The notes under the pieces are model-generated. The model had not been told where the DNA came from. It searched no databases and saw nothing but the letters and a program-made list of their open reading frames with translations. A DNA stretch of 64,000 bases, from the sequence record PZ445514.1, one strand, 5' to 3'. Below are positions 4,494 to 9,020 of the stretch, piece by piece. The translations under genes were made by a program, and so were the position numbers. The stretch is from a phage. Position 1 is the stretch's first letter, and the number at the start of each line of letters is the position of its first letter.

Positions 4494-4826
4494 TTAAGGT
4501 AACCAGTAAACAATCTCGCCTTTCAGCTTCATGTCGTTTCCAACATAAATTTGCCAGCCATCCATCTTAGCAGCTGCAGGCCCAAAGTCATCCGCACCCC
4601 TTACCTCTTTCCAGGTCCCGTAGTCAGGTTGCCAGATGTAAAATCCACCTTCTTTGTCCCATGCTCCATACACTACGTTTAACAAGTTTCCCATTGCAAC
4701 AATAGTGGGCCGTGGGAACAATGCATCTACAGATGCGCCACAATATCTGGTATCTTTTAAATTGCACTCCCAAAAGATGTCTGCCAGTGTGGCGGCGATA
4801 GCTTTACGTCTTTCTAATGTTACCAT
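4494..4826 (-). CDS. hypothetical protein
   Basis: 110-aa ORF, weak RBS, tightly packed in operon. Confidence 0.5.
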   Translation of the reverse strand: MVTLERRKAIAATLADIFWECNLKDTRYCGASVDALFPRPTIVAMGNLLNVVYGAWDKEGGFYIWQPDYGTWKEVRGADDFGPAAAKMDGWQIYVGNDMKLKGEIVYWLP

Positions 4827-4833
4827 ATCATAC

Positions 4834-5025
4834 TCACTTGTTGTTAATAAGTTCTAAAACTTTCTGTCTTACCTTATCAATATCTGTTGATTCAAAAACT
4901 GTACGATATCCCCAACTTTGCCCATAAGAATGGCTGCAATCACCATAACACCATTGCTCAATTTGATAGTATTCAAGGAACGGGTGCTGTCTAACTATGA
5001 TACCGTCCCGGTTAAAAATTACCAT
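4834..5025 (-). CDS. hypothetical protein
   Basis: 63-aa ORF immediately downstream of a consensus TTGACA/TATAAT promoter. Confidence 0.5.
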   Translation of the reverse strand: MVIFNRDGIIVRQHPFLEYYQIEQWCYGDCSHSYGQSWGYRTVFESTDIDKVRQKVLELINNK

Positions 5026-5056
5026 AATACATCACTCTCTGTTAGTTTATGCGTAT

Positions 5057-5084
5057 ATTATACACTGCAGTTTTCAGATGTCAA
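5057..5084 (-). promoter_or_regulatory. sigma70-type promoter (consensus TTGACA -35 and TATAAT -10, 16-nt spacer)
   Basis: Minus strand reads TTGACA-16 nt-TATAAT about 30 nt upstream of the gene starting at 5025. Confidence 0.5.
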
Positions 5085-5088
5085 CCTC

Positions 5089-5283
5089 TTACAGATTGCT
5101 CCAGTACAATCGGCATTTACATTTTGGGCAATGAGGTTCTTTTATGTAATAACCGTCAGTCTTTGGAACACTTTTTGGTGCAGTTTTAATATTGTACCTG
5201 GTAAAACATCGGAAGCAGGTTACCTCTCCAATCTGTTGATCGTTGATCCACTCGCCAGAGTAAAGTTCTTTCTTGTTCCTCAT
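5089..5283 (-). CDS. putative zinc-ribbon protein
   Basis: 64 aa with CxxC...CxxC pairs (CFRC, CPKC); GAGGAGG upstream. Confidence 0.5.
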   Translation of the reverse strand: MRNKKELYSGEWINDQQIGEVTCFRCFTRYNIKTAPKSVPKTDGYYIKEPHCPKCKCRLYWSNL

Positions 5284-5492
5284 AAGCCCTCCTCAGTCCT
5301 CCAGAACAAATACCAACTCTCCGGTAAATGTTTTTGCAAAGTAATAGCCTGAACATTCATCACTTTTGTACAGCCACCACGTGTCCCAGTCAGGAAGTCG
5401 TACAAGGATATGCTAGGCCCATCTATTACTGGGTATTCTTCAAACGGCCCTTGATTATCCGATTGCGTGGACACACATATGCAGGTTTTCAT
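5280..5492 (-). CDS. hypothetical protein
   Basis: Start moved to internal ATG preceded by GGAGA 7 nt; ATGA overlap with upstream gene. Confidence 0.45.
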   Translation of the reverse strand: MKTCICVSTQSDNQGPFEEYPVIDGPSISLYDFLTGTRGGCTKVMNVQAITLQKHLPESWYLFWRTEEGL

Positions 5493-5659
5493 GCCAGAAT
5501 CTCCAGCCAGAAAGCGCACGGGAACACTTTGATGATTGAATCTTTACCCGGTTCGGCAGTTCTTTTTCCGTAGGGTAGGTAGAAATACCCTCCTGCAGAT
5601 TCGAACACAGCCCCTTCGGTTGTATCTATCACAGCTAGAATTAAGATTTTAGTCTCCAC
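5489..5659 (-). CDS. hypothetical small protein (56 aa, GTG start)
   Basis: GTG preceded by GAGAGGAGAG; stop overlaps start of next gene; not in ORF track. Confidence 0.35.
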   Translation of the reverse strand: METKILILAVIDTTEGAVFESAGGYFYLPYGKRTAEPGKDSIIKVFPCAFWLEILA

Positions 5660-5713
5660 AGTGCTCTCCTCTCTTAGTTGTTGTGGAAACTATATCACCT
5701 CAGAAGATGGTCG

Positions 5714-6172
5714 TCAACACTTTTTGTACTCTACTACAACCACATCAATATCTGTGGTTGCAAGATTAATTACATCTTCTACATGTTCCCACTTTAGACC
5801 GCCAATACCGCATCCGATTTTAGGAATGTAGAACGGCAATGACACACCTTTGAATACCTCGTTGACTCGCTCAAAACCTTTCATGATTGAGAAGTATTCA
5901 GCATTGGGCCCTGGGTAGAACTGGGTATACAGGTTGATTCCATATACGACCCTGTTCTTGGCAAAATGCTCCCAACAAGAAAACATACCCAGCTTGTCTA
6001 GATTCCCATAAGCAGTCTCTTTGTCGGCTGCCAGTGCTTGAGGGAACTCACGGGCAATATCTTTCGCTATGCCTGCACCCATTGTGTGAAAGCAGTTACA
6101 ACCGTGGATCATGTGGCCTGACCCTTTCTTGAAAATGGAGATTAGATCTCCCTTTACAGTATCAATAATCAC
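5714..6172 (-). CDS. macrodomain protein, OARD1/TARG1-like putative ADP-ribose hydrolase
   Basis: By-eye match to OARD1/TARG1 signature from memory: VKGDL, H-x-C-N, MGAGIA, PKIGCGIGGLKWEHV; start uncertain (GTG at 6172 with GAGGAG upstream, or ATG at 6211). Confidence 0.7.
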   Translation of the reverse strand: MIIDTVKGDLISIFKKGSGHMIHGCNCFHTMGAGIAKDIAREFPQALAADKETAYGNLDKLGMFSCWEHFAKNRVVYGINLYTQFYPGPNAEYFSIMKGFERVNEVFKGVSLPFYIPKIGCGIGGLKWEHVEDVINLATTDIDVVVVEYKKC

Positions 6173-6587
6173 GGTATTCCAGCTCCTCTTCTGCAATTTC
6201 CAAAAACTCATCCCAACCCTGTGGCATATTTGAGTTGCCGAAGTGGCTTTCGTAGTAGAGATTTTTACCACTTGGAAGGTAGAAATCTGTTACCTCATAG
6301 AATCCACAATCGTCGCACTCACCTTCTTCAAACTTGGCCTCAACCTTAATACCGAGGAAGGTGAAAAGTTTATGGATATCTTCAGTTTCGAACTCCCAGT
6401 GAATGTTGTTTTCCGCATCGGTGTAGAACTGGATCAGCAGACCATTGTCCAGTTTACCAAAATACTCTGTGAAGTAACTTCCTTCCCAGAAATCTTTATG
6501 ACAAATAATATCCATGCGTTTGCCCATAATAATGGTGTGAGCGTTTTGGGCATCGTCACGAATCAGTTTTGGCATTTCATAGATCAT
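6162..6587 (-). CDS. hypothetical protein, translationally coupled to macrodomain gene
   Basis: 141-aa ORF with GGAGAA upstream; 3' end overlaps the macrodomain gene start. Confidence 0.6.
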   Translation of the reverse strand: MIYEMPKLIRDDAQNAHTIIMGKRMDIICHKDFWEGSYFTEYFGKLDNGLLIQFYTDAENNIHWEFETEDIHKLFTFLGIKVEAKFEEGECDDCGFYEVTDFYLPSGKNLYYESHFGNSNMPQGWDEFLEIAEEELEYRDY

Positions 6588-6655
6588 CTTAGTTCTCCGG
6601 GTTCAACAGGTGGTGGTGCTACAGGAAGATCATAAAACATGGCTATCACAGTCTC

Positions 6656-6853
6656 TTACACAGGAATTGCTTCAAATAGACCGTTATCTATACCGTCCTT
6701 CAGATAGAGATTATATTCTATGTCGGTATCTGTATAAAGGGCAGCATCCAGCATTCTATCTGTGAGTCCATCCATCGGGTGGAGAAACCACCACCCACGC
6801 CAGTCAAAGTAACAGCCTGGTGCATCTTCTCTTACACGGATTCGATAAATCAT
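6656..6853 (-). CDS. hypothetical protein
   Basis: 65-aa ORF with AGGAGG upstream. Confidence 0.5.
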   Translation of the reverse strand: MIYRIRVREDAPGCYFDWRGWWFLHPMDGLTDRMLDAALYTDTDIEYNLYLKDGIDNGLFEAIPV

Positions 6854-6949
6854 GGGCAGTGGCCTCCTGTTAGTTATACATCCCAGTTTTCTTCGTTCAT
6901 CACGTCCTCCCGTTCTATGAAGTTATAATTGCACACCTTTCAACTTGTG

Positions 6950-7366
6950 TCAACAGAAAACTTCAACAAATTCTTCCACAGTTTTAATGTCGTGGGAAAA
7001 AGGTTTACGGCTATAACGGGCAATAGCACTATCAACCACCGCCCGGTACTCCAAATCTTCAGAATATTTCATGAAGCATTGCAGCGTCTCTGGGCAGATA
7101 GCTAAATAGCTCCACCACCCCTCTTCAGATTGGTAGTCGAATCCCATACTCTCCAACCATGAAGCATATACGCCTGCACCTTCAAGCCAGTGAGTATTTT
7201 CATCCAGAAACTTGTTAATAGACATGTGAGCTTCTAAGCATTTATCCAGCTCTTTTCCGTTAACCAGCCATGCACTGACTGTGGCGCATCCGAGGTCTAC
7301 AGATTGAGTTGACAGGTTGTATTGGTCATAGTTCTCAGGTTTAACAATGATATCTTCTAATGTCAT
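6950..7366 (-). CDS. hypothetical protein
   Basis: 138-aa ORF with AAGGAG upstream; first gene after terminator at 7384-7413. Confidence 0.6.
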   Translation of the reverse strand: MTLEDIIVKPENYDQYNLSTQSVDLGCATVSAWLVNGKELDKCLEAHMSINKFLDENTHWLEGAGVYASWLESMGFDYQSEEGWWSYLAICPETLQCFMKYSEDLEYRAVVDSAIARYSRKPFSHDIKTVEEFVEVFC

Positions 7367-7383
7367 TTTTCAGATCTCCTTAT

Positions 7384-7413
7384 ACAAAAATGCCCCACCC
7401 TTTCGGGCAGGGC
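7384..7413 (-). terminator. rho-independent terminator
   Basis: Minus strand GCCCTGCCC-GAAA-GGGTGGGGC followed by TTTTT; downstream of gene ending at 7429. Confidence 0.6.
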
Positions 7414-7428
7414 TATGTTAACTAGATG

Positions 7429-8655
7429 TTAGAATGGGATGTCATCATCAAAGGCGTACTGTGCTGGATTCTGATCCATCGGGTCATCTTCCTCGTCATT
7501 TACAGGAGGAGCGTCTACAGTGTTTTGCTGTGGAGCTGCTTCCTGTTTGGCAGCTTGAGGTTCTTGATGGTCAGTGGACTCAGCACCGTTCTTGATCCAA
7601 TCGTACAACGGCTCAGCCAGATTAGTCAAGACATCTTTTGCTTCTGCAGTAATTGCCGCTGCAAAATCATCAACTTTCGTTTTCTTGTCAATACGGCGAC
7701 AAGCGTTCAACACCGCATTACCGACACTGGCACCTACTTCATCTTCAGTTCGGTTGGTGGCTTGAGCATACTCTTTCTTAAGCTCAATGGTGACTACGTG
7801 CAGTGTTTTAGCCACGCTTAGTGGGTCATCCACTTTAAACCCGCGATCCAGGATGATCTGCAAAGCATTGATGCTATGCCCCGTCTCTACACCAATAGGG
7901 TCGTAAGAGGATTTACGCTTGCCACCAGAGCCTTGAGTGCCGTTCTCTGCCTTAGGTGGATAGGCTTTGAAACCACTGATAATGTTTCCGGTGTCTTTGT
8001 CAACAATGGCTGCAACACGACCACCTACTACCAGGTCTTTAAGCTGCTCATCAGTGACAACCATAGCACCTTCGCCAATCTTGTGGTCATTAACAGTAAC
8101 CACGTTGCCAACAATCTGAGTCACATCACCATAGATGCGTAAAACGTCCTGATTGGCATTCTGCTGAGGTTTCTGCTTCTGGCCTTGTGATTGTGCACCT
8201 TGTTGCTGTTTTTGCTGTTGAGTCGCTGCTGGGGCCTCTCCTGCACCCAGCTTAACCATTTTAGCCAGTGATCCTTTATAATAGGTCTTACCGTTATGCT
8301 CGTTTGCCTTCAAAGGGATATTTACGATCCATCCCGGCGTTACGGTTTCCCACTTGTCATCAATTTTAACAGAGACAGAGTCTTGATGACCAGGTTTAAG
8401 CAGCTTATCACCCATACTGATCCAAACTTCTTCACCACCTTGAAGCAGGTTATCAGAGGAATCCAGTTCAGAAATCAGTAAAGAGATGGTGTGGCTGGAT
8501 TCAATTTTCTTACCTTGCCACACAGTGGTTTTAATACCTGTTGTAGGATCAGCACCTTTGATAGGTTTGATGCTGACACGTTTAATCATGCCGTGAGCCA
8601 GTAAAACAGTTTCACGCGGATTCATCGGGTTAGCAAATTGTTGAATAACGCTCAT
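7429..8655 (-). CDS. putative ssDNA-binding / replication accessory protein with SSB-like acidic C-terminal tail
   Basis: 408 aa; Q-rich low-complexity linker; ends ...AFDDDIPF, the same tip as E. coli SSB; AAGGAG upstream. Confidence 0.55.
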   Translation of the reverse strand: MSVIQQFANPMNPRETVLLAHGMIKRVSIKPIKGADPTTGIKTTVWQGKKIESSHTISLLISELDSSDNLLQGGEEVWISMGDKLLKPGHQDSVSVKIDDKWETVTPGWIVNIPLKANEHNGKTYYKGSLAKMVKLGAGEAPAATQQQKQQQGAQSQGQKQKPQQNANQDVLRIYGDVTQIVGNVVTVNDHKIGEGAMVVTDEQLKDLVVGGRVAAIVDKDTGNIISGFKAYPPKAENGTQGSGGKRKSSYDPIGVETGHSINALQIILDRGFKVDDPLSVAKTLHVVTIELKKEYAQATNRTEDEVGASVGNAVLNACRRIDKKTKVDDFAAAITAEAKDVLTNLAEPLYDWIKNGAESTDHQEPQAAKQEAAPQQNTVDAPPVNDEEDDPMDQNPAQYAFDDDIPF

Positions 8656-9020
8656 TATTTGTCTCCTTGTTCTTCGTTAGTGTTTGCCGTGTGTGCAAAC
8701 CCTGCTTGAATTAATTTGTCCTGAACTTGAGCCAGCAGGCCCATTGCAAAACTTGTGGTCCCAGAGAGGGCCATCAGCATATCTCGTTGTTGAGCTACCC
8801 AACCTAAGGCATAGTCCAAACGACGATATTTTTCTTCTTCACGCAAAGCTTGGAATAATTGTTCAGCCTCTGGCTGTTGTGTGAGCTCCTGAAGTCTTCC
8901 CATGAAAGAAGAAAGCACTAGCAGAAGAGACACTTGATCTTTACTTAACCCTAAGAAAAATTCTTGAGGTTGTTCTTGCTCGTTCATCGCAACCGACGCT
9001 TGATCGTTCATTTGTTCCAT
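8655..9020 (-). CDS. hypothetical protein
   Basis: 121-aa ORF with GGAGA upstream; TAATG overlap with next gene. Confidence 0.55.
   Translation of the reverse strand: MEQMNDQASVAMNEQEQPQEFFLGLSKDQVSLLLVLSSFMGRLQELTQQPEAEQLFQALREEEKYRRLDYALGWVAQQRDMLMALSGTTSFAMGLLAQVQDKLIQAGFAHTANTNEEQGDK

Follow-up and report, generated by a model that had tools for sequence, protein, structure and literature searches.

In phage T4, a HIDEN-SEQ screen on a host with the DarTG2 system identified tk.4 as the single conditionally essential gene, and a clean tk.4 knockout is sensitive to DarTG2; the gene was named adfM (bioRxiv 10.1101/2025.11.20.689424). Macrodomains of the type found in phage PhiKZ, likewise named AdfM, strip the ADP-ribose that is added by DarT2 from DNA in vitro, and they have a lysine-type active site (Asn23/Lys78) (Cell Reports 2026, PMC13309987). 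Against DarTG1, the same task is performed by NADAR-type erasers (AdfN; PMC11825919). Here we describe a macrodomain gene at positions 5714-6172 (minus strand) of a stretch of phage DNA from sequence record PZ445514.1. (We will refer to this entire stretch of 64,000 nucleotides as the window.) The gene is rv5_gp204 of phage rV5, and full-length alignment identifies its product, gp204, as the ortholog of T4 Tk.4 (AdfM).

The bacterial protein SCO6735, from Streptomyces coelicolor, is also informative. SCO6735 hydrolyzes ADP-ribose that is attached to thymidine in DNA and shields cells from DarT; this hydrolysis is abolished by replacing a glutamine in its active site (Q85A), and the rotamer of Gln85 is locked by Asn27 (PMC9411070). 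As described below, gp204 resembles SCO6735 in sequence and has a glutamine at the same position.

For the rV5 protein itself, the fold, the family, the active-site residues, and the orthology to Tk.4 are established. From the orthology, we infer that DarT2-modified DNA would be its substrate and that it would have a role in counter-defense. Our preferred reading, to which we assign a probability of about 0.68, is that gp204 is a glutamine-type (SCO6735-like) DNA ADP-ribosyl glycohydrolase that would counter DarT2 in rV5. A preliminary description of this DNA had proposed that a phage macrodomain might reverse DNA ADP-ribosylation by DarT-like toxins. That idea was right in kind and homology backs it, but it is not new, because it had already been published for T4 Tk.4 and for the AdfM of PhiKZ.

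A stand-alone macrodomain of the TARG1/DarG class

Gp204 matches the Macro family of Pfam (PF01661; 25.9 bits, with a gathering cut-off of 22) as well as PHROG 335 (E = 8e-60), to which T4 Tk.4 also belongs. An AlphaFold2 model, built with an alignment of 105 sequences, has the three-layer alpha/beta/alpha macro fold, with a predicted local distance difference test (pLDDT) score of 97 and a predicted template modeling score (pTM) of 0.91. When we compared this model to the Protein Data Bank (PDB) with Foldseek, it matched TARG1, Poa1p, the DarG proteins of Thermus and Mycobacterium tuberculosis, and SCO6735, all with a probability of 1.0 and with template modeling (TM) scores of about 0.7-0.8. 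The top match was human TARG1 (also known as OARD1; 4j5r), at 8.5e-10 and with TM scores of 0.75 to 0.81. The VKGDL, MGAGIA, and GCG-loop motifs of gp204 are also found in TARG1, but the two proteins are just 24-27% identical and both catalytic residues differ. We also compared a profile of the gp204 family to the PDB and found members of the TARG1-DarG-SCO6735-Poa1p class with E values from 1e-15 to 1e-12. The best of these were proteins with a glutamine-type site, namely BT1257 (1.1e-15) and SCO6735 (7.7e-15), with TARG1 and DarG just behind (about 1e-13). The motifs that bind ADP-ribose are present in gp204: Asp9 (within VKGDL), Asn26, MGAGIA (residues 31-36), and GCGIGG (residues 120-125). 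These matches are far beyond chance, and gp204 is a stand-alone macrodomain of the ALC1-like class (TARG1/DarG/SCO6735/Poa1p). The assignment to the TARG1/DarG class in the preliminary description is thus borne out by Pfam, by Foldseek, by the profile search, and by the two DarG models that we turn to now.

The PADLOC model for DarG matches gp204 with E = 8.5e-13, at positions 3-143 of 329, and the NCBIfam model for DarG (NF048014) matches with E = 6e-12, at positions 2-144 of 338 and with 45.5 bits as against an equivalog cut-off of 250. In both cases, the match covers only the N-terminal macrodomain part of the model. We found no DarT gene adjoining the gene for gp204, whose neighbors are small phage genes in PHROGs without known function. 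Because gp204 lacks both the DarT-binding domain and an adjacent darT, we consider it to be an orphan member of the DarG/TARG1 macrodomain class. For comparison, the macrodomains of DarG2 (from Thermus aquaticus, 5m31/5m3e, or from M. tuberculosis, 5m3i) have the same fold (TM score about 0.75) and the same presumed substrate, but unlike gp204, they are followed, at the C-terminus, by a domain of about 190 amino acids that binds DarT, they are encoded beside darT, and they have a lysine (Lys80) at the position of Gln84.

T4 Tk.4 (L002, 3001-3468) aligns with gp204 over its full length (39% identity across 153 aligned positions; E = 4e-44 in BLASTP). Both proteins are single macrodomains of similar size (155 amino acids in T4 and 152 in rV5), both have the NLYTQ-PGPN active-site segment with its glutamine, and both are encoded in clusters of small non-structural genes. 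The phages belong to different groups (Straboviridae for T4, Vequintavirinae for rV5), and while the neighbors of tk.4 in T4 are vs and tk.3, the neighbors in rV5 are unrelated genes without known function. Gp204 is far more similar to the Tk.4 of Krischvirus (68% identity) than to that of T4. More broadly, we found homologs of the macrodomain in 2,827 of 50,697 phage records. Over the region that contains the gene (positions 4500-8700 of the window), Escherichia phage rV5_ev147 has exactly the same sequence (100% identity), and more than 100 genomes of Vequintavirus match with 96-98% identity. The reference annotation of rV5 describes rv5_gp204 as "tk.4: phosphatase; similar to RB49 Tk.4".

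The open reading frame (ORF) lies on the minus strand, with its stop codon at 5714-5716. Three observations indicate that translation starts at the GTG codon at 6172, which gives a product of 152 amino acids. T4 Tk.4 aligns from residue 1 of gp204 (MIIDTVKGD as compared to MIVKYIKGD); a Shine-Dalgarno sequence (GAGGAG, at 6183-6188 on the minus strand, within the 3'-terminal part of the ORF upstream) stands 10 nucleotides before the GTG; and the RefSeq annotation of rV5 has the identical coding sequence of 459 nucleotides. We also considered two in-frame starts that are farther upstream (ATG at 6211 and GTG at 6271), but these have no support from homologs, which align from the GTG at 6172. 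The preliminary description had given a length of 153 amino acids, which is one too many, and had offered 6211 as an alternative extent, which the homologs do not support. The hallmark motifs that it listed are all found in the translation: VKGDL is at residues 6-10, MGAGIA is at 31-36, PKIGCGIGGLKWEHV is at 117-131, and the terminal hydrophobic segment, DVVVVEY, is at 143-149 and forms a beta-strand in the AlphaFold2 model.

Active site of gp204

To compare active sites, we used a MAFFT alignment of gp204 with TARG1, M. tuberculosis DarG, SCO6735, T4 Tk.4, and four other phage homologs, together with the profile alignments to PDB structures. The catalytic dyad of TARG1 (Lys84 and Asp125) is absent from gp204. 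In place of the lysine, gp204 has Gln84 (codon CAG at 5921-5923, minus strand), and in place of the aspartate it has Gly124 (codon GGC at 5801-5803, minus strand), as GCGIGGLKW of gp204 aligns with GCGLDRLQW of TARG1. The preliminary description had pointed to the placement of these two residues as a check on TARG1-like function, and this check fails. The catalytic lysine of the DarG type is not kept either: PTK(K) of M. tuberculosis DarG, which includes Lys80, aligns with the position of Gln84. T4 Tk.4 has the same glutamine as gp204.

The glutamine is instead shared with SCO6735 (5e3b) and BT1257 (2fg1/2afc). Like gp204, these are stand-alone ALC1-like macrodomains with a glutamine for the catalytic lysine and without the aspartate, and in the profile alignments to both of them, glutamine is paired with glutamine. 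Although they are only about 28% identical to gp204, the active-site histidine, asparagine, and glycine loop are conserved. Specifically, His23, Asn26, and Gln84 of gp204 correspond to His24, Asn27, and Gln85 of SCO6735, and the loop includes Gly128 of SCO6735. Asn26 (codon AAC at 6095-6097, minus strand) also corresponds to Asn22 of DarG, and the role of this conserved asparagine in macrodomains has been described (PMC9411070, PMC13309987). Among the 105 aligned homologs, Gln84, Asn26, Gly34, Gly120, and Gly122 do not vary at all and His23 hardly varies, and 115 of 120 homologs from the database have the motif N-x-Y-T-Q. Because Gln84 aligns with Gln85 of SCO6735, which is needed for the hydrolysis of thymidine-linked ADP-ribose, the alignments identify this site as the established catalytic arrangement of SCO6735 and not as a loss of function.

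There are also differences from SCO6735. In SCO6735, the glutamine is followed by a mobile loop that is five or six residues longer than in gp204 or Tk.4 and that includes a DNA-contacting lysine (Lys89); the shorter loop of the phage proteins has no lysine (QFYPGPN as compared to QHGMKTGSKGAP). Furthermore, SCO6735 is a bacterial protein that is regulated by DNA damage.

One close relative departs from the glutamine pattern. In Krischvirus ECD7, Tk.4 (L003, 10659-11114) has a lysine at the position of Gln84 (NLYTKF), while the Tk.4 of JK32, from the same genus (L004, 1501-1956), has a glutamine. The lysine in ECD7 could be either a natural switch to the state seen in DarG and TARG1 or a sequencing variant.

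Proposed role and alternative explanations

If gp204 acts as we propose, then upon infection, the host toxin DarT2 would be released and would place ADP-ribose on thymidines of single-stranded phage DNA, which would block replication. The phage macrodomain would be expressed, as part of its cluster of small genes, from sigma-70-type promoters and would bind the ADP-ribose via Asp9 (adenine), the MGAGIA and GCGIGG loops (diphosphate), and Asn26. Where TARG1 and DarG use a lysine nucleophile, gp204 would rely on Gln84, held by Asn26, to position a water molecule and the distal ribose; cleavage of the bond between ribose and thymine would then allow replication to resume. Because gp204 has no C-terminal DarT-binding domain like that of DarG, it would mainly be an eraser. 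Like SCO6735, for which this has been reported, it may also weakly inhibit DarT directly.

Several points weigh against this proposal. The identity to T4 Tk.4 is only 39%. The case of T4 tk.4 is based on genetic evidence from a preprint (bioRxiv 10.1101/2025.11.20.689424), and our literature searches did not find a test of rV5 or of any other Vequintavirus against DarTG2. A bacterial homolog from Pelagimonas has no DarT gene beside it and lies among housekeeping genes, so a link to DarT is not a general feature of the family. Finally, this class of macrodomains is promiscuous, with proteins as additional substrates of SCO6735 and TARG1 and with ADP-ribose-1''-phosphate as a substrate of Poa1p. 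Indeed, His23 and Ser30 of Poa1p have counterparts in gp204 (His23 and Thr30).

These residues are among the reasons to ask if gp204 might be a general enzyme of ADP-ribose metabolites (a phosphatase for ADP-ribose-1''-phosphate, like Poa1p, or a deacetylase for O-acetyl-ADP-ribose) that clears metabolites derived from nicotinamide adenine dinucleotide (NAD) during infection, instead of repairing DNA. Related records are annotated as "phosphatase", "Poa1p-like", or "O-acetyl-ADP-ribose deacetylase", structures of Poa1p are among the top Foldseek matches (1.8e-09), and in some Vibrio phages the homolog adjoins a gene for ribose-phosphate pyrophosphokinase. However, the "phosphatase" label stems from a generic in vitro activity of macrodomains and not from a test of the Tk.4 family. 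The only known phenotype of the Tk.4 family is the sensitivity of T4 to DarTG2, and the signature of the active site is that of SCO6735, which hydrolyzes ADP-ribose on DNA, so we consider a role in metabolite clearance to be unlikely. We similarly doubt that gp204 reverses ADP-ribosylation elsewhere than on DarT2-modified DNA, such as on proteins or RNA that are modified by phage enzymes or by other ADP-ribosyltransferase defenses of the host. Protein-linked ADP-ribose is hydrolyzed by both SCO6735 and TARG1 (PMC9411070), and the 2,827 phage records with a homolog involve many hosts and may exceed the distribution of DarTG2. But no data indicate another target, the screen in T4 on the DarTG2 host gave tk.4 as its one significant hit, and the genomic context gives no lead: PHROG scans of nine neighboring genes gave only families of unknown function. 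Given that the Lys/Asp dyad of TARG1 has been replaced (Lys84 by glutamine and Asp125 by glycine), gp204 might instead be a catalytically dead module that binds ADP-ribose as a sponge or a reader. This seems very improbable: SCO6735, with the identical substitutions, hydrolyzes its substrates with high activity and relies on the glutamine to do so, the aspartate is absent from DarG too (PMC9411070), and the (near) invariance of Gln84, Asn26, and His23 is as expected for an active site under selection.

The remaining alternative involves the gene just upstream, rv5_gp205 (6162-6587, minus strand), which encodes an acidic protein of 141 amino acids. This ORF is real, as it matches PHROG 8157 (function unassigned) with E = 2e-80. 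Its TGA stop codon (6162-6164) lies just past the start of the macrodomain coding sequence, so that the two genes share 11 nucleotides (GTGATTATTGA). Gp204 and the 141-amino-acid protein could be a split DarG, that is, a two-part counter-defense in which the acidic protein acts in trans to bind DarT or to mimic single-stranded DNA. The C-terminal domain of DarG, which gp204 lacks, has been described as a negatively charged mimic of single-stranded DNA, and the 141-amino-acid protein is strongly acidic (isoelectric point 4.3; 31 Asp+Glu as compared to 11 Lys+Arg). Nevertheless, we think that a split DarG is highly unlikely and that the 141-amino-acid protein is probably not a functional partner of the macrodomain. 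Overlaps are common in this cluster (6 of 13 junctions between neighboring genes). The 141-amino-acid family is found in just 177 phage records, all of them Vequintavirus or Krischvirus, as compared to 2,827 for the macrodomain. In Krischvirus ECD7, the homolog is 9 kb away from tk.4, and the gene upstream of tk.4 in both T4 and ECD7 is vs. So, of the translational coupling suggested in the preliminary description, the overlap is genuine but the partnership is doubtful.

The 141-amino-acid protein has few relatives of any kind: we found 11 among 1.84 billion representative proteins, and one of these is a spurious cysteine-rich eukaryotic protein. Beyond PHROG 8157, scans against Pfam, PADLOC, and NCBIfam and further searches gave no match to a family or fold. 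Conservation lies in the C-terminal half (EGECDDCGxYxVTDxxLPSGxxxYxExHFGN). Direct comparison showed that the protein is unrelated to Vs of T4. In ECD7, the homolog (gp065; L003, 20001-20432) ends at the start of the gene for the Dam DNA adenine methyltransferase, with an overlap of 1 nucleotide, and thus the family adjoins a different DNA-modification gene in each group of phages.

Gene neighborhood and relatives in other phages

The macrodomain gene lies within a long series of small genes on the minus strand. A hairpin that resembles an intrinsic terminator (7392-7413, minus strand; a 9-bp stem with 7 GC pairs, then a T-run) is probably the upstream boundary of its transcription unit. A consensus scan identified a candidate sigma-70-like promoter at 6925-6953 (minus strand; TTGACA, 17 nucleotides, and AATTAT, plus an extended TG), which precedes the genes at 6656-6853, 6162-6587, and 5714-6172, as well as further candidate sites at 6710-6738 and 5689-5717. 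The reference annotation of rV5 also includes sigma-70 promoters in this cluster. Because promoters of this type are both annotated and predicted, it is plausible that the host RNA polymerase would express these genes early, in line with the "early operon" of the preliminary description.

Other features of the cluster are as follows. The strong hairpin at 7392-7413 follows the largest gene of the cluster (7429-8655, minus strand; PHROG 4477, function unassigned), whose product of 408 amino acids has a long Gln/Lys-rich center of low complexity and an acidic tail. In reference rV5, gp207 and gp209 are separated by rv5_gp208 (L001, 8930-9553), an endonuclease gene whose relatives are annotated as endonuclease VII or homing endonuclease; this gene is absent from the window (at about 7366-7430). 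In many relatives, the megablast match of the window is in two or three pieces. A perfect sigma-70 consensus (TTGACA, 16 nucleotides, and TATAAT; 12/12) is present at 5057-5084 (minus strand) and is the annotated promoter P205 of rV5.

Just upstream of this promoter is an ORF for a zinc-ribbon protein of 64 amino acids (5089-5283, minus strand; CxxC...CxxC), which is rv5_gp201 (PHROG 4864, function unassigned). It is 78% identical to gp090 of ECD7, which is encoded directly downstream of tk.4 in that phage with an overlap of 11 nucleotides; the annotation of Vequintavirus BP9 has no gene in the equivalent location. The high similarity of the zinc-ribbon protein, along with the macrodomain being closer to Tk.4 from Krischvirus, suggests that rV5-like and RB49-like phages have exchanged a block of genes.

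Macrodomains that resemble Tk.4 are also found in Felixounavirus HY02 (L006, 295-1065) and Kuttervirus CBA120 (L007, 226-831), where they have C-terminal extensions of 50-100 amino acids. The 141-amino-acid protein is not related to these extensions.

Like gp204, the AdfM of PhiKZ (gp104) is an orphan macrodomain from a phage (a chimallivirus), and it protects against DarTG2 by clearing DNA of ADP-ribose (PMC13309987). But PhiKZ gp104 has a lysine-type site, is closest to DarG2, and is imported into the phage nucleus, while gp204 has a glutamine-type site and belongs to the lineage of Tk.4. The Tk.4-type macrodomains of phages may be a glutamine-type catalytic lineage, apart from the lysine-type AdfM of PhiKZ and DarG, and perhaps with a broader range of substrates. 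Because T4 Tk.4, rV5 gp204, and 115 of 120 homologs have the glutamine and not the lysine of DarG and PhiKZ, it appears that phages have recruited two catalytic variants of one class of macrodomain against the same toxin. This mechanistic distinction is the one addition that our analysis makes to the literature that we consulted; it is incremental and raises no new question. DarTG2 systems are found in E. coli, including in pathogenic strains, and rV5-like phages are used for typing O157 and are candidates for therapy, so recognizing an AdfM-type eraser in these phages would help to predict their host range.
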